DNA of 64,000 nucleotides from an uncultured Bacteroidales bacterium (GTDB lineage: Bacteria; Bacteroidota; Bacteroidia; Bacteroidales; DTU049): contig CAYRXH010000002.1 in NCBI GenBank assembly GCA_964428185.1, positions 19,651-83,650 on the forward strand. Reading direction: 5' to 3'. The translations under genes and the position numbers were made by a program. Shown here one piece after another: positions 3,001 through 62,678 of this stretch (within the stretch, counting starts at the first letter, position 1; the number at the start of each line of letters is the position of its first letter). Below the pieces are notes generated by a model, which searched no databases, had not been told where the DNA came from, and saw nothing but the letters and a program-made list of their open reading frames with translations.

Positions 3001-3602
3001 TCAAGTTTGCACAGGAGATCATGAATCGCATCTGCGCCCATTTTCGCAATAAACTTGTCGGGATGAGAATCATCAAGCAGAAAATTTTCTTTAGGAAGTT
3101 TTTCCAAAATATCCAGATATTCATCTTCAGTGATGAAATCCAGAAATTTCTTATCTTCCATAATCCCGGGATTGATTACTACATAGTTTTCATAGTATAT
3201 AATCTGCTCAAGTTTTTTGGTTGGGAGTCCAATAAGACTTCCGATTTTATTTGGGAGAGATCTGAAAAACCAGATGTGTGCAACCGGAACAACAAGCTGA
3301 ATATGTCCGATGCGTTCGCGTCTGACTTTTTTCTCAGTTACCTCAACACCACAGCGGTCACAGACTATACCACGATAACGGATTCTTTTATATTTACCGC
3401 AATGACATTCCCAGTCCTTTACAGGACCAAAGATACGCTCGCAGAATAATCCGTTGGGCTCGGGCTTGTATGTTCTATAATTGATCGTTTCAGGCTTTGT
3501 CACTTCGCCGTTTGACATTGCAAGAACTTTATCCGGAGATACAAGGCTTATGGTAATGCTTGTAAAATTACTTTTTGGTTGAGTTTCCTTTCTGAATGCC
3601 AT
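1..3602 (-). CDS. rpoC: DNA-directed RNA polymerase subunit beta' (N-terminal ~1200 aa; C-terminus lies beyond window start)
   Basis: Absent from the ORF track because it runs off the edge. My translation from the ATG at 3602-3600 gives [88 protein letters not shown], the zinc-binding beta' N-terminus. Nt 1-320 translate to ...[19 protein letters not shown].... It lies directly downstream of rpoB. Confidence 0.95.
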
Positions 3603-3636
3603 ATGGAAAACGTATTATAATTTTTGATAATAAAAA

Positions 3637-6600
3637 CTATTTCTGATCAAATGTGATATCAAGTCCCAGACCTCTCAGTTCATGTGAAAGTACATTGAAT
3701 GATTCGGGAATACCTGGAACAGGAAGATTTTCACCTTTGACAATTGATTCGTATGCTTTGGAACGACCAGTTACATCATCAGATTTGATAGTAAGAACCT
3801 CCTGTAGAATATTGGCAGCACCAAAGGCTTCAAGAGCCCAAACTTCCATTTCACCAAATCGCTGTCCTCCAAACTGTGCTTTTCCACCAAGAGGTTGTTG
3901 TGTGATCAATGAATATGGGCCTATTGAACGAGCATGCATTTTGTCATCAACAAGGTGGTGAAGCTTCATCATGTAGATGACACCGACAGTGACTTTCTGG
4001 GTAAATTTGTTTCCTGTAAGTCCGTCGAAAAGTTCAACTTCGCCATTTTTAGGAAGCCCTGCATTAGACAAATAGTCATTGATTTCATCAAGTGAAGCAC
4101 CGTCAAAAATCGGAGTAGAAAAATGTAAGCCCAGTTTTTTCCCAGCCCATCCCAGAACAGATTCATAAATTTGCCCCAGATTCATACGTGATGGTACACC
4201 GAGAGGATTGAGTACGATGTCAACAGGAGTGCCATCTTCTAAAAATGGCATATCTTCAGGTCGTACAATCTTTGCAACAATCCCTTTGTTTCCGTGGCGT
4301 CCGGCCATTTTGTCCCCAACTTTAAGTTTTCGTTTCTTGGCAATAAATACCTTTGCCAGCTGAACTATTCCTGCAGGCAATTCATCACCCACCTGTGCCA
4401 CAAATTTCTCACGGGTATATGTTCCGAAAAACTCCTTATACTTGATGTCATAGTTGTGGAGAATCCTCTGAATAACTTCATTCTTTGCTTTGTCCGAAGT
4501 CCATTTGGTTGGGTTGATTTCAATATAGTCAATAGATTCAAGGACCTTTTTTGAAAACTTGGATCCTTTTGGGATCAGTTCCTGTTTGATTGTATTGAAA
4601 ACGCCCTGAGATGTTTTACCATCAATGACTTTCATCAGTTTGTCTATCAACTTTGCTTTCAGTTCAGCGGTATCTTTTTTGAAGTTGTTTTCGAGTTGAT
4701 CAAGAATAATTTTTTCTTTTGTTTTTGATTTTTTATCTTTGATTACACGGGCAAAGAGTTTTTTGTCAATGACAACACCCTTGAGTGAGGGAGGTGCTTT
4801 GAGTGAAGCATCCTTTACATCTCCTGCTTTGTCACCGAAAATGGCACGAAGCAGTTTTTCTTCTGGCGTTGGATCACTTTCCCCCTTTGGAGTAATTTTT
4901 CCAATAAGAAGATCTCCTTCTTTAACATTCGCTCCGATGCGTATCATCCCGTTTTCATCCAATTCTTTAAGAGCCTCTGAACTAACATTGGGAATATCTC
5001 TTGTAAGTTCTTCAAGTCCAATTTTCGTGTCTCTTACTTCCATGGAAAATTCTTCGATATGAACTGAAGTAAACCAGTCATCACGAACAACTTTTTCAGA
5101 AATTACAATTGCATCCTCAAAGTTATATCCTCTCCATGGCATAAATGCGACAAGAAGATTTCGACCCAAAGCAAGTTCACCATCTTGTGTTGCGTACCCT
5201 TCGCAGAGCACCTGCCCTCGGGTAACCTTCTGGCCTTTTTTCACAATTGGCTTCAGGTTTATGCTTGTATTCTGGTTGGTTCTCTGAAATTTTGTCAGGT
5301 AATAGGTTTTGATATCATTATCAAAACTGACTAGACGTTCTTCTTCAGTACGAATATGTTTGATTACAATCTTTTGAGCATCAACATATTCCACTACACC
5401 GTCGGATTCTGAATTGATAAGAACGCGACTGTGCTGAGCAACTGTAGGTTCAAGCCCTGTCCCTACGATAGGTTTTTGAGGTTGCATAAGAGGGACTGCC
5501 TGTCTCATCATGTTGGAACCCATGAGTGCACGGTTTGCATCATCATGCTCCAGGAATGGAATCAGTGATGCAGCAACAGAAGCAATCTGATTTGTCGCGA
5601 TATCAATATAATTGACACGTTCAGGTTCAACATAGGGATAATCAGCTTCAAAACGGACTTTTACTTTTTCGTTGACAAATTCTCCGTTCTGTTCATATGG
5701 TTCAACAGCCTGAGCAATGATCTTATCTTCTTCTTCTTCAGCTGAAAGATACATGGGGTGAAGGTCGGTTTTCACCAGACCGTCTTCAACTTTATAGTAT
5801 GGTGTTTCAATAAACCCAAGTTCATTGATTTTAGCATATACACAAAGAGAAGAAATCAACCCGATATTTGGACCTTCCGGGGTTTCAATAGTACAAAGTC
5901 TGCCGTAATGGGTATAATGAACGTCACGGACTTCAAACCCTGCACGTTCTCGTGATAACCCTCCGGGGCCCAGGGCTGAAATCCTGCGTTTGTGTGTCAG
6001 TTCAGACAATGGATTGGTTTGGTCCATAAACTGAGACAGCTGATTGGTGCCAAAAAACGAATTAATCACAGATGATAATGTTTTGGCATTTATCAGGTCC
6101 ATTGGTGCAAACACTTCGTTGTCACGAACATTCATGCGTTCCCTGATAGTTCTTGCCATACGGGCCAGGCCAACTCCAAACTGTGCTGAAAGTTGTTCCC
6201 CTACTGTTCGTACGCGTCTGTTGCTCAGGTGGTCAATGTCATCAATGTCAGTTTTGCTGTTAATCAACTCGATGAGATACTTGATAATATCAATGATGTC
6301 ATCTTTTGTAAGAACTTTCCCTACGTTTGGAGTATCTTCAGGACGATTGAGTTTTTTATTAATTCGGTATCTTCCCACATCACCAAGATCATATCTTTTA
6401 TCTGAGAAGAATAGCTTGTCGATGATTCCACGGGCAGTTTCCTCATCAGGTGGTTCTGCGTTCCGAAGTTGCTGATAAATATATTCGATTGCTTCTTTTT
6501 CACTGTTTGCAGGGTCTTTCTGCATCGTGTTAAAGATGATGGAATAATCTGCGATATTAATTCCTTCTTTATGAACAAGAATGGTTTCAACCCCTGAATC

Positions 6601-9715: not shown

Positions 9716-10258
9716 TTATTCTTTTTCTACTTGAAGAAATCCGAGCTCAAGAGGTGTCTTGCGTCCGAATATTTTTACCATTACTTTCAGTTTTTTCTTT
9801 TCTTCATTGACCTCTTCAATGATTCCTGTAAAACTGTTGAAAGGACCATCAGTCACTTTTACTGTCTCTCCTACAATGAATGGTTCATTCAGTTCTTCAT
9901 CCTTATCAAGAAGTTCGTCCATTTGCCCGAGAATGCGTCTGACTTCTGCAGGGCGCATAGGTACCGGTTCGCCTTTGGTTCCCAAAAAACCCATGACACC
10001 AGGAATACCTCTGATAATATGAATAATTTCACCACTGAGGATTGCCTCTATAAGAACATAACCGGGAAAATAATTCTTTTCCTGACTGATTTTTTTGCCC
10101 TTACGGATTTGATACACCTTTTCTGTAGGCACAAGAACCTGAGTAACAACGTTTTGCAGGCCGAGTCTTGAGATTTCATTCTCAATGTACTGCTTTACCT
10201 TTTTTTCGCTGCCACTGATAGCTCTGACAACATACCATTTTAATGCACTTTCACTCAT
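9716..10258 (-). CDS. nusG: transcription termination/antitermination factor NusG
   Basis: [21 protein letters not shown]-terminal domain and a KOW-like C-terminus. The ORF track starts at a TTG at 10267; the ATG at 10258 ([11 protein letters not shown]) is the more likely start. Confidence 0.95.
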
Positions 10259-22474: not shown

Positions 22475-23371
22475 TCACGCCGGATCAACATGAATCACAA
22501 CATGGGTTGCTTCTCCGAACCTGTCTTTGAGTTTTTTTTCAACATCAAGTGTCACTTCGTGTGAATTATACACACTCATCTTGGGATCAATCTTAATGTG
22601 AATTTCAATAGCTATGTTATTTCCTATATTTCTGGTTCTTAGTCCGTGAGGCTGTTGTACATGGTCTACTGAAGAAATGATTGCACAGATTTCTTTTCTG
22701 GTTTTTTCAGGCAATGATTTTTCTAACAGATCATTTACCGCGGGGAGTATTATTTTCAGGGCAACCCTGATGATCATAAAACTGACAATTGCTGCAGCAA
22801 GAGGATCCAAAATTTGCCAATGACCACCTAAATAAACAGCTCCGCCAATTCCAAGTAAAGTGGCAACAGAAGAGAGGGCGTCTGATCGATGATGCCAGGC
22901 ATTGGCTCTCAAAACCTGACTGTTGTGGCGTCGTGCAGCAAAAATAGTGTACCAGAACAAAATCTCCTTGACAATGATTGAACCTGCAGCAGAATACAAT
23001 GCGATGGTTTTTGGAGGCTCTGATATCGCACCGATGCTGTAAAGATAAATATTGTTTCCCGCATCCCAGAGTATGCCTAATCCTGCCACTGCAAGCAATG
23101 TTCCAACTACAAATGTTGAAAATGTCTCAAATTTGCCATGCCCATATCTGTGGTTATCATCCACAGGTCGTGCAGAAATTTTTACAAAAATCAACACAAT
23201 AATGTCTGAAATCAGATCTGACAGCGAATGTGTGGCATCGGCAATCATTGCACTGCTGCGACCCACAATGCCTGCAAAGTATTTTATTGTAGTAAGTATA
23301 ACATTGACTATCAGCCCGGTCAGCGTGACTTTTACAATTTCCTGAGTTGTAATTTGAACTTTTTTGTGCAT
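22475..23371 (-). CDS. cation diffusion facilitator (CDF) family metal efflux transporter
   Basis: 298 aa with six TM segments. Motifs ADATHSLSDLISD and HRSDALSS, plus a C-terminal cytoplasmic domain ending IHVDPA. Confidence 0.88.
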   Translation of the reverse strand: MHKKVQITTQEIVKVTLTGLIVNVILTTIKYFAGIVGRSSAMIADATHSLSDLISDIIVLIFVKISARPVDDNHRYGHGKFETFSTFVVGTLLAVAGLGILWDAGNNIYLYSIGAISEPPKTIALYSAAGSIIVKEILFWYTIFAARRHNSQVLRANAWHHRSDALSSVATLLGIGGAVYLGGHWQILDPLAAAIVSFMIIRVALKIILPAVNDLLEKSLPEKTRKEICAIISSVDHVQQPHGLRTRNIGNNIAIEIHIKIDPKMSVYNSHEVTLDVEKKLKDRFGEATHVVIHVDPA

Positions 23372-23506
23372 CCGAAACTGAATCTATTTGGCAAAATTAA
23401 AGATTTTACCACAGGAAAATGTGCTGTTACCTCAAAAAAAGAGGATTGTTCAAGAAATCAAATACTTTTGAATGATGATTTTCATTAGAATTATGAGTGA
23501 TAAAGT

Positions 23507-23720
23507 GAAAAGCTTTTTAATTTTTTTTCACTATTGTCAGGAAAAAATGTTTAAAGTTTGAAAAGCCTTGAAAATATTGTGTTTTAGAGATTCTTATGCG
23601 AGCTGGGGCTTACTTATGAAAGTGGCAAATTTGTAAATCATAAAATACTCACATTCAAAATATTATGTTTTGAAAAAACAAAATATTTATTTTTATCGGA
23701 CAATAATGATTAAAAGATTG
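23507..23720 (+). repeat. ~215-nt intergenic repeat, copy 1 (second copy inverted at 57938..58151)
   Basis: Shared blocks with the reverse complement of 57938-58151: ttcactattgtc, tttaaagtttgaaaagccttgaaaatattgtgtttt, agctggg, tggcaaatttg, tatgttttg, tttatttttatcg, acaataatgatt. Confidence 0.75.
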
Positions 23721-23816
23721 GAAGATTCTTAGATTGCGTGATGGTGTTGTGCTTGTGACTGGCTATTAGTGATTGGTGAGGGGTAAAAAACACTTCGACA
23801 TTCGATATTTCATGGA

Positions 23817-24140
23817 GGGACTCCTTTGGAGCAATATTCATTATTCTATACCTTATACTTTATCCTTTAGAAAATAGAAAATATTTCCTTTTGCCTTGTA
23901 CATTTTCCCTTATACCCTTATACCCTTATACCCTCCACCTCTATACCTCTATACCCATATACCCCTAACCCGCCTGTCAGTTCGAGTAGACCACGTAGAG
24001 GTCGTATTGAGAACATGTAGCCACTTCTCGATACTCCCTCCTGCGTCGGGCACTCGAAGTGACACAACTGTCATACAGAGGGATTGATAGACGAAAATCA
24101 TACTATGGCGTTATTTCTGCAATCCCGAAGTATCTCATAC
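23817..24140 (+). repeat. structured intergenic element, copy A (88-nt four-helix core 23976-24063, flanking hairpin 24073-24133)
   Basis: Aligns with 39907-40106. Its right flank aligns with the reverse complement of 40256-40371. See findings. Confidence 0.75.
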
Positions 24141-24228
24141 AAGATGATGCAATGACCCGCCACATTCAAAGCTTCATGACTACTATGAATCCATTCTTCA
24201 GTAATTGGTATGTTAGACATAAGAAAAA

Positions 24229-24258
24229 AGTGTAAAGCGAGATAACTCACTTCACACT
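24229..24258. terminator. imperfect hairpin terminator downstream of the AOR gene
   Basis: agtgtaaagcgag-ataa-ctcacttcacact (11 of 13 pairs), flanked by A6 and T4. On the minus strand it follows the AOR stop by ~30 nt. Confidence 0.5.
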
Positions 24259-24288
24259 TTTATCTTTTCACTTTCACCTTTCACCTTT

Positions 24289-26445
24289 CTACTGAAGAGG
24301 AGTAACAACTTCAAGAACTTCAGGAAGGTCCATTCCCAGATCTTTCAGTCTTTCGATGGTAGGAACCCCGTTGGGTGTCCAGCCACGTCTTTTATACACA
24401 GCGTCGAGGAGTTTTTCGTACTGATCTTCGCGGTGTTTTCTGAGAAATGCCATTTTTTCCTGAGTGCTTTTTCCAGCGGGATCAATACCAAGAAGGTCTT
24501 TCAGTTGACCATCATAACGCTCTTGCCGTGATTCATATTCTTCAACTGTAACAGGGCCTGCAGCACGATAAGGCTGTGCGTCATGTTTTCTTAGTCCGTA
24601 TCCGCGGCGGATGTTAAAAATCCTCTGGAACTGATATACCCTTTCACTCTGGCGGATGAGTTCCTCTTTGGTAAAATCGTTGCCGGTAACTGCTTTGTAT
24701 ATGGTAACATAATTATCAACGTGCTCGGGCACCTTGGCAGGTTCAGCCTGAAGGTGGTTGTCGGCAGGTTCTACATCATTCCATGGCAGTTTGCACAATC
24801 CTTGAAGTCCGAACCATGTTCTGAACATGGGGAAATAATACAAGGCCTCGGCTTTCTTTTCAAATGTAGGAATCTGATTGTTGACCATATCCATGAAAAT
24901 CAGCCAGGCTTCGTCATGCTGCGGACCTTTGTTGGTCATTGCATATCCACCCTGTTGTGCCAGTGATTCTTTGGAGATATATTGGCTGTATTCAAGACCT
25001 TTGTTTTCCATAGCTATATCTGTAATAAACATTGGATCTCCCCAGCCTTTTTCGATAAACATTTCTTTCATCTTGCGGACACCCATTCCGGCAATCACAC
25101 CAAAACCCTCACTGCGTGCCAACTGATGCAATAGTTCCATGGCATCATTTTCACTGCCAAAACTCAGATCCAGACCACAGGTGCGTTCTTTATTGAGGAT
25201 ACCGTTTTCATAACATTCCATGACAAAACCCATGATGGTTCCCCATGTTATTGTACAGATACCGTAAGTGTCACAGTAGAAGTTTGCTTCGATGGTCCAT
25301 TCGGGATTGAAAATTCCCATGTTTGACCCCAGCGATGAAGTTGTTTCATATTCGGGACCGTCAACAATGACCTTTTGTCCCTTGTAGGGACCGGTTTTCA
25401 GTTCAAAATTATCAACACCCTTAGCACAGCTCATATTACAACCAATCCAGCAACCGTCAGGAACTCCCTGTGTGAAATAACTCATCCACACATCACCGTG
25501 AATTTTATAAGCGTCAGGGTGAATTCCGAATTTGAAATTGTGAACTGGAAGCAAATCATAGTCATTCATGATGTTTGTAAGGTGAGCTGTCCCCTTTTTG
25601 CGCATTTCACACTGTGAATCATCAAGCTCACGCATTTCTTTGTTAAAGCGGCGACCGCGTTCCATGATGGCTTCAATGTCAACAACATTGTTGATGTTTC
25701 CTGTAATACCAGGGATTTTTGCAACGATGGCTCTGATTTTTTTGTCACGGAGGACAGTCCCTGTACCCCCGCGTCCGGCCTGTTTCAGTCTGATTTTTTT
25801 ACGCTTGTTGTCGTAAAAAGTAAAGTTCAACATTCCAATCAGTGAATGGTCAGCAGCATCTCCTGCAGAGACAATTCCGATATTTTTCTTGTCCTTTTCG
25901 TCAGTTGCGAAAAGATCAGTCAGTTCTTCAGCAAGCAGGTGAGAGTCATGAGAAAATCCGGGATCTTCAAAAATCTCAATTCTGCCTGTTACTCCGTCAA
26001 GATAAATCACCACATCCTTTTCTGCTTTGCCCTGAATCTCAATTGCATCAAAACCGCACACCTTGAGAAAAGGACCAAAGAATCCACCCACATTACTGTC
26101 GATGGGGATGTCCGTCTGGGGAGATATGGTAACGACTATGGACTTGCCTGCCCCTGAATATTGGGTAATACCACAGATGGGACCTCCGGAGATAACTAAT
26201 TCATTTTCAGGATCATTCCATTTTGTTGTGGGGAGTGTGGCTTCCCACAACAATTTTAAACCATACCCCTTCCCTCCAATGAATTTTTCTTTCATCATGG
26301 GGGGAACATCCTTAATACTGAATTCAGTATTGCCAACATTCACATAGAGAACTTTGTCTGTATATCCCTTGTTAATGGAAGTCTTTTCATAGGTTAGCTC
26401 TTTCAGAATGTGTCGGCTCTTTTTAATTTCTTCAATGTTAATCAT
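24289..26445 (-). CDS. aor: aldehyde:ferredoxin oxidoreductase family (tungsto/molybdopterin) enzyme
   Basis: 718 aa with an AOR N-terminal domain (GYTDKVLYVNVGN...KFIGGKGYGLKLLWE) and a long alpha-helical AOR C-domain. Confidence 0.88.
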   Translation of the reverse strand: MINIEEIKKSRHILKELTYEKTSINKGYTDKVLYVNVGNTEFSIKDVPPMMKEKFIGGKGYGLKLLWEATLPTTKWNDPENELVISGGPICGITQYSGAGKSIVVTISPQTDIPIDSNVGGFFGPFLKVCGFDAIEIQGKAEKDVVIYLDGVTGRIEIFEDPGFSHDSHLLAEELTDLFATDEKDKKNIGIVSAGDAADHSLIGMLNFTFYDNKRKKIRLKQAGRGGTGTVLRDKKIRAIVAKIPGITGNINNVVDIEAIMERGRRFNKEMRELDDSQCEMRKKGTAHLTNIMNDYDLLPVHNFKFGIHPDAYKIHGDVWMSYFTQGVPDGCWIGCNMSCAKGVDNFELKTGPYKGQKVIVDGPEYETTSSLGSNMGIFNPEWTIEANFYCDTYGICTITWGTIMGFVMECYENGILNKERTCGLDLSFGSENDAMELLHQLARSEGFGVIAGMGVRKMKEMFIEKGWGDPMFITDIAMENKGLEYSQYISKESLAQQGGYAMTNKGPQHDEAWLIFMDMVNNQIPTFEKKAEALYYFPMFRTWFGLQGLCKLPWNDVEPADNHLQAEPAKVPEHVDNYVTIYKAVTGNDFTKEELIRQSERVYQFQRIFNIRRGYGLRKHDAQPYRAAGPVTVEEYESRQERYDGQLKDLLGIDPAGKSTQEKMAFLRKHREDQYEKLLDAVYKRRGWTPNGVPTIERLKDLGMDLPEVLEVVTPLQ

Positions 26446-26482: not shown

Positions 26483-26668
26483 TGAAATTATTCTGCATTT
26501 TCAAACTTTAGGAACTCCAAATTTTTGGAATTTGATTTTGATGTTTATCATAACTGATATGGACAAAGAACTTTATATTTTACGTTATCAGAGTATTATA
26601 AAAAATATTTTCTGGCTGTTTCCAAATTTCAGATAGTGATTTTATATATTTTCTCTATAAAAAGTAAA

Positions 26669-26742
26669 GAGTAGAGAGTGCAAGTGATGAGAAACTGCAA
26701 TTTCTTTCTCTATCTCTACTTACTACTTGCTACTTTTTTTTT
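26669..26742 (+). repeat. hairpin + T9 module, copy 1 (copy 2 at 60771..60841)
   Basis: The shared consensus, with copy 1 / copy 2 variants in brackets, is gtagagagtgcaagtg[atgag/cag]aaaaactgcaatttct...ctctactt[a/c]ctacttg[c/a]tac followed by T9. Confidence 0.75.
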
Positions 26743-26754
26743 CGGTTGTGTGTA

Positions 26755-26778
26755 AATTAAAATGTTCATGTAAATTTG
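26755..26778 (+). promoter_or_regulatory. promoter cassette copy 1 (-7 box TAAATTTG at 26771-26778)
   Basis: gtgtgtaaattaaaatgttcatgtaaatttgta matches the cassettes at 60907-60939 and 62607-62639 at 30 of 33 positions by my count. Confidence 0.6.
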
Positions 26779-26798
26779 TAGAAATATTTAATTTAAAA

Positions 26799-27733: not shown

Positions 27734-27810
27734 AAACAGAGCGAGTGTGAGAGTTAGTGTGAAGCACTTACGACCACTCTCGCTCTGTTTCTCTAAACTC
27801 ACACTCACAC
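27734..27810 (+). repeat. tRNA-trailing hairpin plus conserved CA-rich tail, copy 1
   Basis: aaacagagcgag...ctcgctctgttt (12 bp plus 3 more), followed by ctctaaactcacactcacac. The homologous module lies on the minus strand at 58208-58285. Confidence 0.75.
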
Positions 27811-39852: not shown

Positions 39853-40106
39853 AAGATTAAGCCTAAGGCTTCACTTATCCCAAGCCAAAGGCTTCCCTAT
39901 GGGATAGGGACTCCTTTGTAGCAATATTCAATATTCATGATTCTATACCTTTTCCCTTATACACTTATACTTTATACCCTTTTACCACCTCTATACCCAT
40001 ATACCCCTTACCCGCCTGTCAGTTCGAGTAGACCACGTTGTGGTCGTATCGAGAACATGTTGCCACTTCTCGATACACCCGCTGATGCGGGTACTCGAAG
40101 TGACAC
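39846..40106 (+). repeat. structured intergenic element, copy B (87-nt four-helix core 40018-40104)
   Basis: Aligns with 23707-24065. The core differs from copy A at 4 of the first 59 nt plus a replaced fourth hairpin. Confidence 0.75.
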
Positions 40107-40255
40107 TTTAAGTAGCTTTTGATTTTTACCCTCACAATGCCATTTCCCCTTTAGGGGCAAGTGGCAAATGCGAATGTTCAAAAAAATCAAAAACATATCA
40201 TCGCCTTATAGTTTGGCAAAACAAGACCACGGAAAGAGAAGGATCTCATTCATTT

Positions 40256-40371
40256 GTGATACTTCGGGATTGAGAATATTCAGCCATAGGCTAGGTTTCT
40301 CGCAACAATCCCTATGTATGACAACAGTGTCAGTTCGTTTAGATGCAAAATATCGTATCGAGAAGTGTCAC
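40256..40371 (-). repeat. inverted, truncated third copy of the same element (flanking hairpin 40259-40319 plus partial core)
   Basis: Matches the reverse complement of 24061-24140 (atacttcgggattg, gccatag, caatccct.tgtatgaca) and continues into gtgtcagttcg...gtatcgagaagtg. Confidence 0.65.
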
Positions 40372-40400
40372 TTATTGGATATATAAATAGGTTATTAAAT

Positions 40401-40430
40401 AAAAAGGTTGCAGGAAACGGCAACCTTTTT
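40401..40430. terminator. bidirectional rho-independent terminator
   Basis: aaaaaggttgc-aggaaacg-gcaaccttttt. Lies 20 nt downstream of the giant gene's stop, between convergent transcription units. Confidence 0.85.
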
Positions 40431-40449
40431 GTTGGTTGTTATTGTCGTA

Positions 40450-43400
40450 TTATTCTTTTACCATTTTTCGTGTAAGTTGTTTTTGGTCAAAAGTAATAGA
40501 GTAGTAGTAGAGACCGGCTGCCATTGAACGTGTATTCAGAAGAATTGCATGTTGTCCTGTAGCATAGTCAGCACTTTCAGAGTAAATGGTTTCACCAAGA
40601 ATATTAGTCACTGTGAAAACAACCTGTCCTGCTTCCGGGATGGTGAATCCGATAGTTGTTTCATCAGCAGCGGGATTTGGTATGTTCTGCATCAGAATAA
40701 TTCCGTCAAGGCTGAGTTCTTCCACTCCGATAATCATTCCCTGGCAGAACTGATCATTAGTGGTAATGGCGTCACCTGCTATTGCAGTTTTTGCGCAAAG
40801 CTGGTAGTCAGCCGAAGGACTTGTAAATGTAGTAACAAAAGTATAATCGGTTTCAGCTCCGGGAGCCAAAGGTGTGGTAATCAGTTCGGTTGTTTGAGGA
40901 ACTCCGTCAATAAGGAACTGAACAGGGACTGAGTTGAGTGTTTGCAATCCATGGTTTTTCACACGAATAGTAACAGTGACATTCTGACCTGCCCAGGTGA
41001 AACCTGAAGGACTGATAATTGAGATCACTCCACCATCAATATTTGCGGGTCCTGCATTTAAGGTAACACATGTAGTGTCATTGAAATCGTATGTATCACC
41101 GCTGAGGTTTGTCCAAGAGCATAGGTCATAGACACTCTGGAACGGGCCTGTAAATGTAGTTGGGAAGGTGAATGATGTTTCAGCATCAGGAGCCAGCGAA
41201 CCAGTCCATGTACCGTTCACCGGAGGTGCACCTGTCATCAGTCTGTAAGTTACAGGAATTGATGTCAGAGTTTGAGTACCGAAGTTTTTCAGTCTTACAG
41301 TCACCTGATTCTGTGCGCCTGTTGCAGATTGTCCCACGGGAGCTTCAATTGCAATCACACCTGCATCATTGGGTATCTGAGGCTGGTAGATTGTAAAGTC
41401 ATCAACAGCCCATCCATTATATGTTACAGATGCATTTGAAAAGAAATGGAATCTGAACTGAACAGGAAGCGGGAAGTAATCAAATGCAGAAAGGCTGATT
41501 TCTGAATACTGCCATCCTGCAGATGAACCTGAGAATCCGGGAGCACTTGCAATGTTAGCAGTATTATACCAGTTGGTTCCTGTTGGATCATTGAGAACAC
41601 CCAAAGTGAGCCATGTGGAACCACCGTTGGTTGAATACTGAATCTTGCCACCGTCAACACCGTTTTCAGTGTCAAGCCAGTGCCAGAATCCAAGAGCCAT
41701 ATTGTTTACATTGCTGAAATTAAACTTGGGAGTGTATAAATAGTAGTTGCTGTTGTTATTGTAGTTCCCATTGAGTAGAGTTGCCCAGGCATTAACGGGG
41801 CTGTAGGCAGAATCAATCACTGTTGCACTTGGTATTCCAAGTTGCCACTGATTGTTGGTTCCGGCAATATACCAGTAATTTGTTGATTCAAAATCATCAA
41901 AGTATGGTACTGACAATACAGGAAGTCCGTATCTGTTTTCGCAGATTTCGTTGTTGCCGGGAATGCCGTCGCCTGCCAGATCTGTTCTTACACAGATTGT
42001 GTAATCGCCATCAGGGACAGTAAACGGAGTAGTAAATGTATAAATGTCTTCCTCATCAGCGGCAATTGATCCTGTCCATGTTTCGGTCACAGGTATGCCG
42101 CCATTGATTGTATATGATACAGGAACAGATGTGAGTGTGGAAGAACCGTAGTTTTTAATGGTAATCTGCATATTGATAGCTGATCCGCCATCTTCCATAG
42201 CATCCACGTTGTCAATTGATACGGCTCCTGCATCCAGAGGAGCAAGGATACGGATGTTGATGTCATCAATGTATGAATACCAGTTTGCAGCAGGGCTATA
42301 TGCATACCATCCGAAGTAATATATTCCGCTGGTCGTAGGTGTATAAATTGCAGTTGCAAGCTGATGAGTTGTGTTGGTAAAGAGTTGCAGCTGAAGTAAA
42401 GTGTCAATAACTGCTGTGTTTATCGGATCAGTTGCTACAACCAGGTCAGTGTTCTGGGCATATGTTGCACTTTCAGCACGATACCAGAAGTCAATCTTGT
42501 ATGCAGTGCCGGCTTCAAGATAGAAGCATTCGCTGAAGAGATAGTCATTTCCGGGATTGGTGCTGCCATTATAGAATCGTGCTGATTTGGATCCTGTGTG
42601 AGCAAAGGTTGTACTGTTATAACCTGGTTCCCAGGTACGGGCGTCACTGTTCAGGTCGAGGACTGTCCACTGACTGTAATCTTCACCGACTTCGAATCCC
42701 ATAAAGTAATCAGATGAATAGAAGTCATGACCTGATTTAATCGTGTAGGTAAGAGTATCATTGAATGCAATTCCGTCACCTGCCAGGTCCACTTCGAAGT
42801 ATATTTCATATACGCCGGGAGCAGATAAGTCAGCAGTTTGAGTAAATGCATAGTCAGTAACATCTCCTACTACAAGAGTGTCAGACCAGACCTCTGAAAC
42901 GGGAGTGCCTCCATTGATTGAGTACGATACATTCATAGAGAAGATTGTATCAAGCCCCAGATTTTTCACTCTGACAGTGATGATTTCAGCATTGCTTAAT
43001 CCGCAGCCTGCAATGGGAGAGATTCCCTGTACAACAGCAGCATCAATGCTGGCAGGAGTGTATTCATCCGCACCGATTGCAGGAGCTACAGGATCACGAA
43101 GATCACCATCAAAGTCATCGGAAATTTCAATGATGGGAGTGCCACTAGCCCAAAGTTGTGTGGTTGAAGCATGAAGATCTGTAGGAGAATAGTAGAAAGG
43201 ATTCCCTACTTGTGAGTTGAGGTCGTTTCCTGCAGGTGCATTCACTGACTGCAAAGCTGTTAGGTCTGCTCTTGCTGCTCCGTAGTAGACAAAATTTGTT
43301 CCGGTGCTATAATAGTTATTGTAGTCATGCGCCAAATAGTTGGTTGTCCCTACTGAATAGTGAGCATAACCGGCACCTGTTCCTGTAAAGGCGAGGGAGT

Positions 43401-46400
43401 TATTGCGGAAATCTGTTTGTGTTGCAGTTGAATTAATATAAGTAGCACGTCCGGTAATTCCGTTCATATTTATACTATTATACCACACATTGACTTTTTC
43501 AACAGTGGTAATATATAACCCTGTTGCTGTTGAAGCAGTTGAAGTAAATCCACCACCAATCATATTGTTTGAAATTGTTGAAGGAATTGTAGTTGGAATT
43601 GCTGATGTTGCAGTAACATATATACCGTAGGCACCAACATTTGTGATCTTGTTTTTATTGATTTCAAAAGGAGGAGCAATATTGGAATGGTAGATGCCGT
43701 AACTTGAAGTGGTGGTTGTTGGAAGAGTTCGTCCAATAACAATGTTGCTGTTGACTTTGGCCTGATCAAGTTGCAGTACATAGATGCTATAATAATACTG
43801 GTCTTTTAAAGTATTGTTGATGATTTCCACATCCTGCATTCTGGAAGCTGAGAGACCATAAAGGATAATTCCGTAGTATCCTCCGTTGATTGTGTTGCCG
43901 TCAAGAAGCAAATCAGTGACTGCATTTCCTCCTGTTGTTGCAGAAGTGGCGCTGCCGCTGGCTACAAAGCCGGCATAGTTCGTTGAACTTGCTGTTGTGT
44001 TAGTGTTCAATGTACAATTTGTAAACTGAATATCTTCGCAGCCATTCATCAGATGAACTGCCCATCCATATGTGGCATTTGCTTCTGCCTCAATGGTCAG
44101 GTTTTCAAACCTCATGTGTTTTGCACTGTCCAGTTTTAAAACATAGCGTTCTGCATTTACTGATGGACCATAGGATAAAACTGCATTGCCGTTACCAACG
44201 AATGTAATAGTATTGGTAGCGTCTGTGCCGGGAATATCATTCAATCTGACTTGTTCATAATAAGTACCCTGTTCTACAATAAATGTAACAGGACAACTGA
44301 TCCCCCAGTTTTGCAAACCATTTACTGCTTCGTTAAATGTTGTAAAGTCAGGATTTGTACCGCCGATATGATACACACCACACAGAGGTTCGTATGCTTC
44401 AAGCTGATAGTAGGCTGTATCATTGATGTTGATCAGATCAGTTCCACCATTGGGACTTTCTGTCCATGCAATGATTTCATTGTTCCCTAATAAAAATGTT
44501 GTAGATCCGATTGTAATATCAGTGGCAGTTTCGCCGGTCGCAAGAATTCCTGTCCAGTTATATGGAGTCTGCGCTAAGCCGTTGACAGTCCAGTGAATTT
44601 CAACAGCAGTAAGAGTATCTGATCCGTAGTTCTGAATGGTAACCTTTACATCATTAGCTTGCAGGTTGGCCGGATCAAATGGTTCGTCAATTGATACTAC
44701 GCCAGCATCAAGGTTGGGGATGCTTGTTGTGTCAATAATTGCCCATACTTCGGCACGGTCACTTTCGCAACCACCAGCAACTGATTCATAGAAAAATTCA
44801 CCGTTGAACATTCTGAGGTTGTTTGTGCCTCCGAAAGGAGAGCAGAGTCCAATTCCACTTTCAAATGATAAAGTAGAGTTGGCAACTACAGTAGTTGAGG
44901 TAACATTTGTGTAATTGGCATTATACTGTACATATATTCCCATGAGTTGTTCGTTGGGGAGAATTAAATCATCACATTGAAAATAGACCGGAACATCTAT
45001 GGTTGCATTTACGGTATATGTTCCAAGAAGTGTCCAGTTACCGGGTGTGAGTTCGGATCCAAGATATGTACCTGTTTTGTAATAAATACTGACAGGGAGT
45101 GCAGCATCTGAAGAGTTGGGAAGTATTTTCATGCCTGTGATTTTAATATCACCATCAATTGCTGTTAGGTTAAACATATTTCCACCTCCGCAGCCATTGC
45201 CCATTGCATATGAAATTTCAAGAGAATCTTCAACAAAAGTACCTTCACTTGCGCCCACATAATATGGAGTATTCGCATATAGGATTGGGGTCACATACAC
45301 TGCTCCGGTATCAATTACAACATCTGAAGTTGGAGAGTCGTACCATTTGAGCATATATGTGGAAGAGGCTGTGAGGGTTGCCTGTGTTGCATAGGGGATT
45401 GTGTCATTTTCAACGAGAGGCAAGGGAGCAATAAATCCTAAAGTTGCTGATTTACTTGTTGTATCATTCAGCTGATACCAGTCACCCGGATGTTCAACCC
45501 AAGCTGTGATTGTTATTGTTGTATCCCCGGTGGTGAGGTTTAAATCAAACGTTGTTGCAAATGTATAATCTGCAGTATCTCCGGGAGCAACAGTGATTGT
45601 TACGTTTTCTGTAACAGGAGTGCCACTGTCTATCTGATAAGAAGCAGTGAGTCCTGACATAATGGTATCTGTTCCGAGATTTGTAAATCTTATGCTGACT
45701 TCATTTGCATCACTTGAACAATCTTCATTAAGAGGATTAACGACTTCAACAATGGAAGGTTCATATTGTGGAAGAGTGACGTGAGCAGTTACAGGGACCC
45801 TTTCGCTTGAGCAGCCAGGTGCACCAACCTCCCAGTTGTAAAAATAATAATAAAGATCGTTTCTCGGAGTGTTTGTGGGATGTGCTGTAAGTGTACTAGT
45901 GTTGAGGGTAATTATCCCTGGTATTGAAAACGGATAGCCATAGTTCCCGGATGGAGCTGATGCTGATGGTTCAAACAGGAGACCTGAAATACCAGTAAAA
46001 GCTGGTCGCATTTTAAGATTGGTCCCTATCTGAAGATTGAAGTCTAGCTGAATGACATGGGGAGAAGGTGTTCCTGCAGGACCACCGGTAACATTCGCAG
46101 TTGTAGTATGTAAAACAGTTCCCGTTCCATCAATAATATCAATGGTTACTGTTCCTGAAGCACTGGTTGCACTCACAGGATAAACTGTAACTGATTTCAG
46201 AAGTGTCGGTGAGAAAACATCAAAGACAATCCCGAAATTTGTAGTGCCAGTTCCACTTGTGGCAGTTGGAAGTGCAGCAGGTAATCCGATATTCTGTAGT
46301 GTGCTGTTTGATGATTCAGCCCAATAGGTTGTAGTAACAAAGAGAGGAGGTGTATTTAACGTATCTCCCTGATGAATTGATGCCTGAGATAAAGAATCGG

Positions 46401-49400
46401 GAAACCAGTAGATTGTAGAGTTTGAACTTGCAATGAGCTCAGCAGGATAGCCATAATTAATATAGTCATCCTGAACAACAGGAGTATCAGGAACAAACCT
46501 GAATGTTTTTGTGATTTGTAGAGAATCATTGTCATGATATGGGTCTCCAGAAATATTGACGAATGTATTCAGTACAAAAGTTGTATCACTTGTGATTAAT
46601 CCGAAGTTCAGAGGGGTAGTGAATGTGAAACTTGCTGTGTCATAGGTAGGAATCGTCAGAGTAACAACTTCATTAACAGGAGTTCCTCCGTCAACAGTAT
46701 AGCTTGCATTGAAAGCGAAAACGGTATCAATACCGGTATTTGTAATATTAATGGTAACAAATTCATCTTCTCCGTTATGGCACAATTCATCATCTGGTGA
46801 TGTAATATCAATGACTGACAGATTGTAAGGGGGAATGTTCACTGTAATAAATACAGTGTCAGTGAAAGTACCACATGTGTTGGTAAAGGTAGCAACGTAA
46901 TCATACTGTCCGTTCACAGTCCATGTCCCTACAACAGTATCGGTATTGTTCACACTAGTGATAATACCTTCCAGACTCCAGTCGAACCCCGATAATGAAG
47001 CCGGAGCGGGAGGTGTAACATTGTTATTGAGGATATTAGGATTCTGTGGCGAAGTTCCTGAGTTGATCCAGTTTGTAGCATCATTTGTATATGGTCCTTC
47101 CAGCCTGTTTCCGGCACTGCTGACTGCAGGAGTGGTGCCGGTCCAGATATCAGGAGTGATTCCGGCGGCAACAGGGAAAGTCATATTTCCGTAAACTACG
47201 GCATCAACGATATCACCTTCGGTGTCTTTAATGACATAACCCTGTGGAATTGTTGAACTTAAGGTTGCAGTATGTCCGGAATGGTAATAGAAATTAGCAG
47301 GACTTGGAACACTACTTCCAAGTTGTCCAGTTGCAATAATACATATTCCGTTCGGGCTTAATACAGTACCAGGGGCAAGAATTTGTGCACCTGCAAGTGC
47401 TGATGATGACCAGATTTCAAGAGTATACCCGGAGATATCAGTATTGGGAGATCCGGTAATTTCAATATAATCGTCAGCAATCAGATATGAAGGCCATCCG
47501 CCAGAAGGAGCTCCGGTTGAGGAGCCTGCGTATTGACAGACTTCAGTGATAAATACTGAAGATGAAGGAAACATATTTGAAGTAACAGATAAATCAACTG
47601 TTTCTCCGGGAAGCATGACAGTAAATGAGTCAGGTGATGCATTGAACGTATATGCAGGGACAACAATGGAAAATGCAGGAGATAATGTATCATTGATAGT
47701 AAAAAAGTTGAGCATACTTGGTTCAATGAATGCATTGAGTGTGTATGTGCCGGGAACAGACATGTCAATTCCGTCATCTGATAAAATCAAATCCGCTCCG
47801 GGATTGAGTTTTCCTGTTGAAACAGTGATGGTTCCGTTTGTATTTACCGGACCAGTGACATTCCATGTGATTTGAAGTGGGAAGATACTGAAATCTGCTG
47901 TATCACCAATGATATTGCTGATAGTAAGATATAGACTGTCGTTATTGTTTAAACAAAGACCTCTAATAAGTTCGCCGTTGGTAATGCCAAGGTCGTGAGC
48001 CACAGGTGTGTATTCAACACAACCGATATCGGGAGTTGATGGGTCTCGGGGATTACCAAAGAAGTCAACTGTAATTCCTGCAATTGGAGTAGCTTTGCCA
48101 TCAAGTTGTGGTCCCAGAGGTTGAAGATCAAGAGGAGAAGAAAACACTGGGTCACCAACATATGAATTAAGATCATTTCCTGCAGGTATATTGACAGCTT
48201 GCAGAGCTGCAAGATTTGCACGTGCTGCTCCGTAATAGACGAAGTTGGCACCGTTGCTGTAGTAGTTGTTGTAATTATGAGCTACAACACTTGCAGTTGA
48301 TTGAACATTAGTGGCGTAGCCTGTAGTGCCTCCGTAATATCCAAATGAGTTATTTCTGATGTTGAGGTTGGTAACACCTGATACGACATATAGACTTCTT
48401 CCTGCCCCGGCAATGTTCACATAAACTGTATTGTAATAAATGCCGATATTTCCGCCTGAAGATAAATAAATTCCTGAAGGGGTTGCAGCTCTGAAGCCTC
48501 CGCCAATCATGTTGTTGGCAATGATTGATTGTCCTGAAGGTGCTGTGGATGAAATCACATAAATACCATAGGTGCCGGCATTGATAATCTTATTTCTGTT
48601 TACATCAAAATTACCATAATCATAACCTACATAAATTGCATAATGTAATGTGGTTCCACCAGTAGTACGTGCATCACAGAAATTCCCAATTATTTTGGAA
48701 GAGTTGACATAAGAATTTCTTACATTGTAATAATAAGCATTGTTCAGTGTGTTGTTGAGAATCTCAATTCCTGTAAGAGGTGTTGCGCTTGCACCGTTAA
48801 AGCTTATGCTGTAGTATCCGCCATTGATAGTATTGTTTTCAATTAAAATGTTATTGGCAGAATTTCCTGTTGTAGTTGCTGAAGTAGCCGACCCTGAAGC
48901 AATAATACCTGAATGATCAGATAAAGTTGATGTGCTGTGAACATTAATAGTACAGTTTGTAATTTCAATGTATTCTGTCTGGTTGGTCATAAAAAATGCC
49001 CACCCGTACGTTGAAGTATTTGGAATTGTTACCGTCAAACTGTCAAATCTCAAGTATTTTGCTCCGTTCATGTAAATGGCGGCACGATCAGCTGAAACAG
49101 TAGTCGTATACTGAATCATTGTTCCTGTGGTACCTCTGAAAGTAATAGTATTTGTAGATGAAGCACCGGGAAAAACACCGTTAAACACCAATCGGGTGTT
49201 AAAGGTGTCAGCAGCTACTTCAAAAACTACCGGACCATTGACGCCGCAATTTGTCAAAGCCATCATTGCATCGTCAAAAGACTGGAAGTTGGTGCCACCT
49301 GTCACCATTGAACTGTCAATGGTATAGGTTCCGCTGAGGATTGACTGGCATGCCCAGAGATTGACCAATGAAGTATCATTATTATTGTTGAGGTCAATTC

Positions 49401-57937: not shown

Positions 57938-58151
57938 ATCATTATTGTTCGATAAAAATAAAAAAGATGTTTTTACAAAACATAAATATCTGAATATAAG
58001 CATTATAAAATTTTGCAAATTTGCCATTTTCAAAATTAAGCCCAGCTTGTAAAAGATTCTAAAAAAACACAATATTTTCAAGGCTTTTCAAACTTTAAAT
58101 GCTTTAAATGTTTTTTTCCGGACAATAGTGAATTTTTAAAATAATCTTTTC
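57938..58151 (-). repeat. ~215-nt intergenic repeat, copy 2 (inverted relative to 23507..23720)
   Basis: See copy 1. It ends next to the corA stop and poly-G tract. Confidence 0.75.
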
Positions 58152-58207: not shown

Positions 58208-58285
58208 GTGTGAGAGTGAGTTTAGAGAAACAGAGTGAGAGTGCTCGTGAGAGCGAGAGCTATCACGAGCACTCTCACTCTGTTT
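58208..58285 (-). repeat. tRNA-trailing hairpin (perfect 23-bp stem) plus conserved CA-rich tail, copy 2
   Basis: On the minus strand: aaacagagtgagagtgctcgtga-12 nt loop-tcacgagcactctcactctgttt, then ctctaaactcactctcacac. It starts at the last base of the tRNA-Leu CCA. Confidence 0.8.
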
Positions 58286-60674: not shown

Positions 60675-60770
60675 AGAGTTTAATGCAAATGGATGCAGTG
60701 AACATCTGCTGATCCATTTTAGACCAGTTCAGTTTTTTTTTGTATCTTTCCTCTAAAAAAAAGAAAAAGC

Positions 60771-60841
60771 GTAGAGAGTGCAAGTGCAGAAAAACTGCAA
60801 TTTCTCACTACTCTCTACTTCCTACTTGATACTTTTTTTTT
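60771..60841 (+). repeat. hairpin + T9 module, copy 2
   Basis: Outer stem gtagagagt...actctctac encloses tgcag-aaaaa-ctgca, followed by ttcctacttgatac and T9. Homologous to 26669-26742. Confidence 0.75.
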
Positions 60842-60860
60842 ATTCCCCGTTAAATAAATG

Positions 60861-60939
60861 ATTTATCCTGTTAGATTGTTTTTTTTCTAACAGGACAATT
60901 TAACGGGGTGAATGTAAATAAAATTTTCATGTAAATTTG
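60861..60939 (+). promoter_or_regulatory. palindrome + promoter cassette, copy 2 (TCCTGTTAGA 60866-60875 / TCTAACAGGA 60886-60895; -7 box 60932-60939)
   Basis: Nearly base-for-base identical to 62563-62639. Ends in TAAATTTG. Confidence 0.65.
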
Positions 60940-61016
60940 TTTACTTCTTTCCCTGGCTTGTTTATGGTAATTGCAAGTGCACTTTGTTAAAGGAAAACAG
61001 AAAAAACAGAACTGTT

Positions 61017-62423: not shown

Positions 62424-62562
62424 AATGAAAAGAAATCATGTTTGCTTGATTATGACATACAGGATAAGGAAAAGGGCCTGCCGTGGACAAATCCTGCACT
62501 GATCAGCAACATTCTTGATGAAAAGTACAAAAAGTTGCATTTATAACTTGAATTCAACAATT

Positions 62563-62639
62563 ATTTATCCTGTTAGATTGTTTTTTATCTAACAGGACAA
62601 TTTAACGTGAATGTAAATTAAAATTTTCATGTAAATTTG
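62563..62639 (+). promoter_or_regulatory. palindrome + promoter cassette, copy 3 (TCCTGTTAGA 62568-62577 / TCTAACAGGA 62588-62597; -7 box 62632-62639)
   Basis: See 60861-60939. The -7 box lies 40 nt upstream of the ppdK ATG. Confidence 0.65.
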
Positions 62640-62678
62640 TAAATTCAAAAAGATATAATCATAAATACTCTATAGAAA

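Follow-up and report, generated by a model that had tools for sequence, protein, structure and literature searches.

A cloverleaf-like intergenic element of an uncultured Bacteroidales bacterium is probably a doublet of REP-like hairpin DNA repeats associated with a GIY-YIG nuclease gene

Two described systems come closest to the subject of this study, a repeated intergenic element in a 64,000-nucleotide stretch of DNA from an uncultured Bacteroidales bacterium (contig CAYRXH010000002.1, positions 19,651 to 83,650; hereafter the window). The first is that of the Ssn proteins, single-domain GIY-YIG proteins of about 94 amino acids (CDD cd10448), whose ssn genes are bracketed by NTS/SRM hairpin repeats that carry a CGTCA tag and occur in hundreds of copies (Chenal et al., Nat Commun 2025, PMC11893778). 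The Ssn proteins of Neisseria, N. elongata, N. wadsworthii and Wolbachia bind the folded repeat, only as single-stranded DNA (ssDNA) and on one strand only; they cut a few nucleotides upstream of the repeat and do not cleave double-stranded DNA (dsDNA), and in N. meningitidis Ssn cleavage modulates transformation (PMC11893778). Chenal et al. liken the NTS-ssnA-NTS arrangement to insertion sequence (IS) elements and to REP/RAYT/BIME (PMC11893778). The second is the group of repetitive extragenic palindromes (REPs) tagged CGTC or TGTC, which were catalogued in bacteria that include Bacteroidetes and Chlorobi, with G. forsetii among the CGTC-positive species listed (Di Nocera et al., BMC Genomics 2013, PMC3733652). 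The CGTC REPs form inverted dimers with a preference for heterodimers, which were suggested to limit the instability of long palindromes; they have no associated transposase and never lie beside Y1 transposase genes, and no dedicated enzyme was found for them (PMC3733652).

A preliminary description of the window had singled out an 88-nt core, present as copy A (23976-24063) and copy B (40018-40104), that folds on paper as a cloverleaf in which an outer helix, P1, encloses three hairpins, P2, P3 and P4. It offered a non-coding RNA (ncRNA), a structured repeat resembling a miniature inverted-repeat transposable element (MITE) or a protein-recognised DNA structure as explanations, and the latter two proved essentially right and close to what the evidence supports. 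The window elements are probably units of a REP-like hairpin DNA repeat family, whose full form consists of two inverted units bracketing a gene for a GIY-YIG protein of about 96 amino acids; the 88-nt core would then be a gene-less doublet of two units placed tail to tail, analogous to a REPIN or a MITE.

The family was defined by the pattern ACTTCTCGATAC-N8-32-CGAASTGACA (21.5 bases), taken from the part common to all three copies in the window. A scan of GTDB species genomes with this pattern matched at least 119 stretches; the matches listed (L001-L119) are the loci from which neighbouring genes were clustered below. Most of these belong to Flavobacteriaceae (Flavobacteriales) and other Bacteroidota, and the hosts among them further include Chryseobacterium, Sphingobacteriaceae, a Chlorobiota metagenome-assembled genome (MAG), several MAGs of the candidate phyla radiation (CPR; Peribacteria and Dojkabacteria) and one 'Akkermansia' MAG. 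The scan of viral contigs with the core pattern and a metagenome scan for the window-specific P3 loop GAGAACATGTNGCCACTTCTCGATAC each gave 0 matches. On a given strand the family shows four boxes in constant order, box 1 (GTCAGTTCGAGT), box 2 (GTATCGAGAAC), box 3 (CTTCTCGATAC) and box 4 (ACTCGAAGTGAC). The box sequences are identical to those of Bacteroidota in L016, L025, L026 and L032 (Peribacteria), L018, L063 and L073 (Dojkabacteria), L002 (Chlorobiota) and L011 ('Akkermansia'). This identity in CPR and other phyla suggests horizontal spread, or else mis-binning in some of the MAGs.

The entity under selection is not the single 88-nt, four-helix object that had been proposed, but a unit of about 40 nt. 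Boxes 3-4 are the reverse complement of boxes 1-2 at all positions bar one, solitary 1-2 or 3-4 halves are present, and many loci carry multiple tandem copies in arrays with a period of about 160 nt. Tandem half-units of the form GATAC-hairpin-TACTCGAAGTGACA, with a period of about 38 nt and lacking a box 1-2 partner, were also seen in L025 (~4149-4270), L027 (~198-280) and L112 (~3468-3560, minus strand). The unit reads Y-GTC-A-S-TTC-GAG-T-R-[variable hairpin]-Y-G-TAT-CGA-GAA-S'-T, with an outer stem A-S-TTC / GAA-S'-T of 5-6 bp and an internal loop that starts with GAG and ends with CGA. A kink-turn or loop-E RNA motif in this GAG/CGA loop was considered and dropped, the motif being equally conserved as its own reverse complement. 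Of 527 units, 77% have T and 21% have C immediately before GTC; there is no conservation further upstream, and beyond a T the unit is followed by no conserved tail.

Two features support folding within the unit. The single variable stem position, S/S', is C/G in 153, G/C in 115, T/A in 2, A/T in 2 and non-Watson-Crick in 10 of 282 unique units; it is thus Watson-Crick within the unit in 272 of the 282, which is why we pair S with S' inside the unit, whereas between units it is mismatched. Between the boxes lies an insert of 9-70 nt, commonly 19-31, that shows no sequence conservation but folds with a mean minimum free energy (MFE) of -6.3 kcal/mol as against -2.4 kcal/mol for shuffles, 89% of units beating their own shuffles. 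The selection on structure suggested earlier is borne out by this result, as P2 and P4 have been swapped family-wide for unrelated sequences with the hairpin retained. The location of the units is intergenic: open frames of at least 150 codons span 80% of the loci but contain only 23 of 316 units.

Neighbouring units alternate in both orientation and type. Among tail-to-tail pairs, 83 of 96 are heterodimers of a G:C and a C:G unit (S:S') and one is a homodimer, and head-to-head neighbours are heterotypic in 58 of 66 cases. Isolated doublets like those of the window were found 51 times in other genomes, with sharp YGTC...GACR ends. A tail-to-tail pair with a short linker is an inverted repeat on either strand, and hence looks like a cloverleaf: box 1 pairs with box 4 to form P1, box 2 with box 3 to form P3, and the two inner hairpins are P2 and P4. 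The alternation of types gives P1 a G-G (or C-C) mismatch and leaves two C residues facing each other at the loop end of P3, so that the 'one G-G mismatch' noted in P1 arises because S pairs within the unit and is mismatched between units.

We then addressed which genes accompany the repeat. When open reading frames (ORFs) of at least 90 codons from the at least 119 listed loci were clustered, one neighbour stood out, a protein of 95-100 amino acids found in 13 loci. Its only Pfam match is PF01541, GIY-YIG (E = 5e-17 and 4e-19), and the residues Y7, Y17, G19, R27, H31 and E65, the catalytic set, are invariant in the alignment; NCBIfam and PADLOC gave no specific family for it. The gene lies among units in all 13 loci, usually just downstream of a forward unit, and in 7 of them exactly between a forward and a reverse unit, at the position that is the P3 'loop' in the miniature form. 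Both orientations of the gene are found with respect to the G:C and C:G unit types.

The association also holds in the reverse direction, from gene to repeat. In 80 metagenomic loci encoding relatives of the gene (53-92% identity), a specific unit lies within 200 nt of the gene in 44 and on both sides of it in 38, typically with the forward unit at -60 to -110 and the reverse one at +6 to +40. Units of the form GTC-stem-GAG...CGA-stem with other outer stems (AGGCT, ATGCT, ATCCT, ACGCT and others) occur in a further 25 loci, mostly those of more distant relatives, so that a specific or generic unit is near the gene in 69 of the 80. Nearly all relatives above about 60% identity have the specific unit, and protein clades co-vary with unit stems. 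In the loci without a specific unit we matched GTC-N5-GAG...CGA-N5 without requiring complementarity, which keeps the test non-circular: the stem was complementary at 5 of 5 positions in 72 matches and at 4 of 5 in 59, as compared with about 0 and 0.15 in shuffles. Plasmid-borne homologues (37-47% identity) are flanked by the identical grammar, as in a Spirosoma plasmid with an inverted pair upstream of the gene (TGTC-ATCCC-GAG-GAA-CGA-GGGAT-C), and related unit forms stand beside homologues in Methylobacterium and Sphingomonas. Because the grammar recurs at distant and plasmid-borne homologues, the features conserved across the superfamily are the tag, a short covarying stem and a loop beginning with GAG and ending with CGA, whose middle portion has grown into a free hairpin in the Bacteroidota type. 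Four marine metagenome contigs (L134, L136, L137 and L138) carry 16-27 units in 2-3.3 kb around the GIY-YIG gene.

These properties place the family close to both described systems. Like the Ssn/SRM system, it combines a single-domain GIY-YIG protein of about 95 amino acids (here in related loci, not in the window) with inverted hairpin repeats that bracket its gene, as in NTS-ssnA-NTS; its repeats are given direction by a 5' (C/T)GTC(A) tag, are multi-copy, intergenic and clustered, and co-vary with the protein. The unit differs in being two-tiered and 40-60 nt long, with an outer stem, a GAG...CGA loop and a free inner hairpin, whereas the NTS is a simple 28-nt hairpin; moreover, G:C and C:G unit types strictly alternate here, and the hosts are Bacteroidota, CPR and Chlorobiota, of which the main text of Chenal 2025 makes no mention. 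The present system is also known from sequence alone, and the window holds no ssn gene. With the CGTC REPs the family shares a CGTC/TGTC tag that is unpaired at one end, a stem starting with an A-T pair, inverted dimers with heterodimers preferred, the lack of an associated transposase, and an occurrence in Bacteroidetes and Chlorobi. Unlike those REPs, which have an uninterrupted stem of 8-9 bp, a 4-5-nt loop and a CCA tail and are mostly arranged head to head, the units described here have a conserved internal loop and a long variable insert breaking up the stem, and their arrays contain many junctions of both the tail-to-tail and the head-to-head kind. A full-text search for the box sequences returned only unrelated primer matches, and the literature searched contained no description of the two-tier form of Bacteroidota. 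A hit to a known family, which the preliminary description had said would refute novelty, has thus come about in part: Rfam has no match, yet the repeat falls into the class already published as Ssn/SRM and CGTC-REP.

The likeness extends to more distant systems. The REP/REPIN/BIME-RAYT systems of Proteobacteria also have hairpin units, inverted doublets able to fold as one long hairpin, two subtypes alternating in orientation (as Y and Z REPs do in BIMEs), a gene-less majority with few gene-bearing copies, and no target-site duplication; they differ in pairing a GTAG tag with an HUH/Y1 transposase, where the present family pairs YGTC with a GIY-YIG nuclease. Compared with a cut-and-paste MITE, the inverted ends are present but the target-site duplication is absent. 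The ends of IS200/IS605 elements and the attC sites of integrons are likewise imperfect hairpins formed by one strand, in which mismatches and extrahelical bases set the choice of strand; a comparable role in strand choice could explain the conserved G-G/C-C mismatch of the doublet. Unlike them, the present family has no associated TnpA, TnpB or IntI gene and no cassettes between sites, and its sequences are unrelated.

Copy A lies in a 917-nt non-coding gap, confirmed by the ORF map, between ORF 22475-23371 (minus strand), a CDF transporter gene whose homologue in locus L205 carries Cation_efflux, and ORF 24289-26445 (minus strand), the AOR gene, with domains AFOR_N and AFOR_C. Convergent genes end on either side of copy B, and a terminator-like hairpin (40398-40433) is close by. 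A direct-repeat search of the window aligned 23945-24038 with 39987-40080 (94 nt, 94%) and 23816-23869 with 39906-39959 (54 nt, 80%); MAFFT joined these into a single common block, 23816-24065 against 39906-40106, interrupted in the pyrimidine tract by an indel of 43 nt. The core begins with the 19-mer GTCAGTTCGAGTAGACCAC, of which the window has exactly two copies as against 0.00 expected by chance, and CACTTCTCGATAC has 3 matches in the window against 0.05 expected, a partial third copy of the core lying inverted at 40258-40365. The recurrence of the core was thereby confirmed by repeat search, MAFFT and 19-mer count, and so, by MAFFT, were the 4 differences in its first 59 nt. The features of the two copies are as follows.

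23816-23846, plus strand: left arm of the duplicated composite (AGGGACTCCTTTGGAGCAATATTCA...), copy A; common to 39906-39936.
23907-23964, plus strand: tandem octamer array (CCCTTATA) x 7.4, copy A, the earlier 'TATACC tract' (TRF).
23975-24015, plus strand: unit U1a, G:C type, TGTC-AGTTC-GAG-TA[GACCAC GTA GAGGTC]G-TAT-TGA-GAAC, with 1 mismatch to the family boxes.
24023-24064, minus strand: unit U2a, C:G type, TGTC-ACTTC-GAG-TG[CCCGACGCAGGAGGG]AG-TAT-CGA-GAAGT, with 0 box mismatches.
24069-24133, plus strand: unit U3a, related subtype, TGTC-ATACA-GAG-[GGATTG-33 nt-CAATCC]-CGA-AGTAT, read from sequence.
39906-39936, plus strand: left arm, copy B (repeat search, MAFFT).
39954-40006, plus strand: tandem octamer array (CCCTTATA) x 6.4, copy B (TRF).
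40017-40057, plus strand: unit U1b, G:C type, boxes intact, with a perfect inner hairpin GACCAC-GTT-GTGGTC.
40065-40105, minus strand: unit U2b, C:G type, boxes intact, with a perfect inner hairpin ACCCGC-ATCA-GCGGGT (minus strand).
40259-40323, minus strand: unit U3b', HP2 subtype, an inverted copy of U3a in which GAG has become TAG.
40328-40365, plus strand: degenerate unit U2b' (TGTCAGTTCGtt...TATCGAGAAG), S/S' = G/G, with 2 box mismatches.

Copy A thus consists of three alternating units (U1 forward, U2 reverse, U3 forward), and copy B of a U1/U2 pair with a decayed U3'/U2' pair nearby. U1a comprises the earlier P1-5', P2 and P3-5', and U2a, tail to tail with it across a linker of 7-8 nt, the earlier P3-3', P4 and P1-3'. 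The conserved CGA of U1a is mutated to TGA, and the exchange of a U-G for a C-G pair that had been read as a compensatory change in P3 becomes, in the unit model, this mutation in copy A. U3a stands head to head with U2a across a 4-nt spacer, and U2b' faces U3b' across a 4-nt spacer in the matching arrangement. U3a and U3b' form an inverted repeat (I1) of 83 nt at 72%, with a mean column identity of 80% in the alignment. The second conserved hairpin of the preliminary description therefore does recur, at 40259-40323; it does so inverted and about 150 nt beyond the copy-B core. That U3a is a third unit, of a related second subtype, is probable, not proven: its order of tag, stem, GAG...CGA and stem is that of the units flanking GIY-YIG genes. 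Folding confirmed that P4 is unrelated between the copies and in copy B is the perfect hairpin ACCCGC-TGAT-GCGGGT.

The left arm and the (CCCTTATA)n array are common to both copies, and on this comparison they show that a composite of about 250 nt (left arm, octamers, doublet) was duplicated in this genome. The left arm is lineage-specific, occurring among the fetched loci only in L124, with identical sequence, and the HP2 (U3-type) sequences are likewise specific to this lineage. The octamer array does precede the core, as reported for the pyrimidine tract, and lies within the duplicated block, yet it is probably not part of the hairpin-repeat system. As a part of the element this tract was ruled out, since in other genomes arrays of period 7/8 show no enrichment next to units (2.9% versus 2.0% of intergenic bases). 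In related Bacteroidota loci, 2-3% of intergenic bases fall in period-7 arrays, which reach 18 copies, and in the window a (TCACTTT/TTTCACC)n tandem array adjoins the AOR stop codon at 24247-24289.

We next consider how such units might work. By analogy with Ssn and NTS, each unit would fold on its own strand when the DNA becomes single-stranded in replication, transformation or conjugation, and a cognate GIY-YIG nuclease would bind the folded unit and nick the strand a few nucleotides 5' of the tag, so that where two units stand tail to tail the nicks would fall outside the doublet on either strand. The window units would accordingly be hairpins recognised, as ssDNA, by a nuclease whose gene lies elsewhere in the genome or has since been lost, and the doublets would be gene-less derivatives of a unit-gene-unit element. 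It is from the same analogy that we infer binding and cleavage by the nuclease, action at the level of ssDNA, the spreading of copies and the existence of a cognate gene outside the window in this genome. The conserved mismatch may do no more than limit the instability of a long palindrome, or it may mark strand or side in a junction substrate.

Folding of the doublet bears on this last point. The four-helix fold drawn previously is the exact MFE structure of copy B, as ssDNA and as RNA and on both strands (z = -6.8 to -8.5); copy A folds instead as a longer imperfect hairpin in which P2 pairs with P4. RNAalifold on 34 doublets returned P1 + P3 + P4, because those helices dominate the energy, with a covariation term of -0.09 kcal/mol. 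P1 and P3 are invariant and hence show no covariation; compensatory changes are confined to P4 and two junction-adjacent pairs, which differ between sub-families. These comparative data support the unit and its two hairpin tiers and are neutral on the junction.

Several results weigh against the reading of the elements as units of a nuclease-linked mobile repeat. The 64-kb window has no GIY-YIG gene (tblastn best E = 4.4), and the closest solved relatives of the GIY-YIG protein are the UPF0213 proteins 1zg2 (E = 4e-13) and 1ywl. The published SRM pattern, HGTCWYN(0-2)YYVSBRHN(0-5)WNVSBRGN(0-2)RNCYNB, has 0 matches in the window and misses canonical units, with 2 matches in the 886,627 bp of loci L001-L119, although it is a search pattern and not a biochemical definition. 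With regard to mobility, the outer flanks of the 51 isolated doublets have direct repeats no longer than those of re-paired controls, giving no sign of target-site duplication, and the nearest relative offered no clean empty site. Finally, because the thermodynamic optimum of the doublet is a four-way junction or a long hairpin and not two separate units, the junction form may be the relevant substrate.

This last point leads to a variant in which the doublet, not the unit, is the substrate: the mismatch would mark strand or side in an extruded four-way junction of ssDNA or a cruciform, which a GIY-YIG nuclease related to Slx1/YhbQ would resolve, so copying or moving the element. We regard this variant as unlikely. 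If true, it would define a class of junction-dependent mobile elements in Bacteroidota and CPR, with a cleavage specificity unlike that of the characterised Ssn enzymes.

An explanation to which we likewise attach a low probability is that the host maintains the repeat, as a REP-like element acting in 3'-end formation or termination, as an mRNA stabiliser or as a site for a nucleoid protein, and that the GIY-YIG gene is a homing-type parasite inserting between units. The gene does sit inside the doublet in either orientation relative to the unit types, many doublets and solo units lie directly after stop codons, and RNA-level roles in 3' untranslated regions are reported for E. coli REPs in a preprint. 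The co-variation of protein clades with stems, which is what one would see for a homing nuclease and its target, is equally expected if the nuclease services the repeat. Against host maintenance, however, the units have no U-tracts, a role as terminators hardly accounts for arrays of 16-27 units in 2-3 kb, and the published Ssn enzymes cut ssDNA only and not dsDNA, unlike homing GIY-YIG enzymes.

An ncRNA, in which the 88-nt element would be transcribed and its four-way junction would act as a small RNA, a cis-regulator or a ribozyme, is very improbable. Such a molecule would account for the high stability of the fold as RNA (z = -6 to -7), for P2 and P4 changing sequence while keeping their hairpin potential and for the intergenic location. 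Yet, as an inverted repeat, the element folds equally well on both strands; its halves are reverse complements even at the unpaired GAG/CGA residues, a symmetry that would not be kept in an RNA motif; half-elements are also found singly, and units stand in either orientation within arrays. P1 and P3 lack covariation and their sole variable position is mismatched, and the element is tightly linked to a DNA nuclease gene. Rfam 15, at the gathering threshold and at E up to 10, gave on both elements only spurious miRNA/snoRNA or genuine tRNA/tmRNA matches, and no match to the repeat on arrays of 15 other loci; ARAGORN made no call at the elements and found only 8 genuine tRNAs in the window. The view that this is not a known tRNA, tmRNA or other RNA family is upheld by these searches, whereas the suggestion that it is an ncRNA is not supported. 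Nor is there a sign that the repeats form a transcription unit, given that a strong terminator belonging to the AOR gene itself (24261-24226, minus strand) precedes copy A and that copy B is set between convergent genes; no conserved promoter was seen at copy A.

A classical REP/REPIN or an IS200/IS605-derived element, mobilised by a Y1 (HUH) transposase (RAYT, TnpA), would share the hairpin units, inverted doublets, BIME-like two-subtype arrays and lack of target-site duplication, but it, too, has hardly any likelihood: the tag is YGTC and not GTAG, the only strongly recurrent neighbour among the matches listed is the GIY-YIG gene, no transposase-like family is present in the 25 most recurrent neighbour clusters of the at least 119 listed loci (as judged from the sequences, not scanned with Pfam), and CGTC-type REPs never lie beside Y1 transposase genes (Di Nocera, PMC3733652). 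Plain segmental duplication of an inert intergenic segment that looks palindromic by chance would fit the presence of only two full copies in the window, with lineage-specific flanks that lie outside the wider family, but is refuted for the core by boxes identical to the family in at least 119 loci of several phyla, far above chance, and may explain only the copying of the 250-nt composite within this genome.

The setting of copy A gives a further view of its history. In the nearest AOR relative (L205, 90% amino acid identity), a BNR-repeat gene (3061-4620), whose product is secreted by the type IX secretion system (T9SS), lies between the AOR and CDF genes, and there are no units; no remnant of that gene is detectable in window positions 23372-24288. 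From this difference the repeat mosaic appears not to be ancestral to the AOR-CDF locus.

The window holds other repeated sequences. Upstream of the CDF gene, 23550-23637 is an AT-rich segment of about 90 nt that recurs inverted at 58012-58099, near tRNA-Leu and tRNA-Gly, with blocks of 36 nt at 100% and 32 nt at 88% and with Bacteroidota promoter-like TTTG motifs inside. Near-perfect long hairpins with arms of 26-27 nt, AAACAGAG...CTCTGTTT, lie at 27734-27790 and 58228-58285, directly 3' of tRNA-Val and tRNA-Leu; they are related to each other and are probably a tRNA-associated terminator or repeat family. Segments of 30-80 nt (e.g. TGTAAATTAAAATGTTCATGTAAATTTGTA) are repeated at 26628-26780, 60728-60941 and 62559-62641, where they precede several plus-strand ORFs or extend across their starts, which suggests a common promoter or leader. 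The unique spacer that separates both halves of the copy-B region contains a long imperfect hairpin (40128-40190) with a spurious mir-320 match (E = 0.0011); one arm of the hairpin resembles 10087-10111, inverted. A giant ORF of 3589 codons (40450-51219, minus strand) ends beside copy B and contains an internal repeat of 161 nt (43172-43332 / 48122-48282, 72%).

For the window, the consequence is one of annotation: the elements are repeat units, not genes, and a candidate novel ncRNA is removed. More widely, conspicuous intergenic palindromes of Bacteroidota are explained, including those of marine Flavobacteriia, with arrays of up to 27 units in 2.6 kb. The class itself, Ssn/SRM-type and CGTC-REP-like, is known already; what is new is the elaborated unit and a previously unremarked host range. 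The CGTC/TGTC-tagged repeats of Bacteroidota are now linked to a GIY-YIG gene, and the Ssn-like repeat grammar is extended to a two-tier unit with a conserved GAG...CGA loop. Because the published SRM pattern misses two-tier units, surveys that use it probably under-count such systems. Ssn enzymes are under development as site-specific ssDNA cutters, and a clade with a longer, modular recognition element could offer a useful new specificity.

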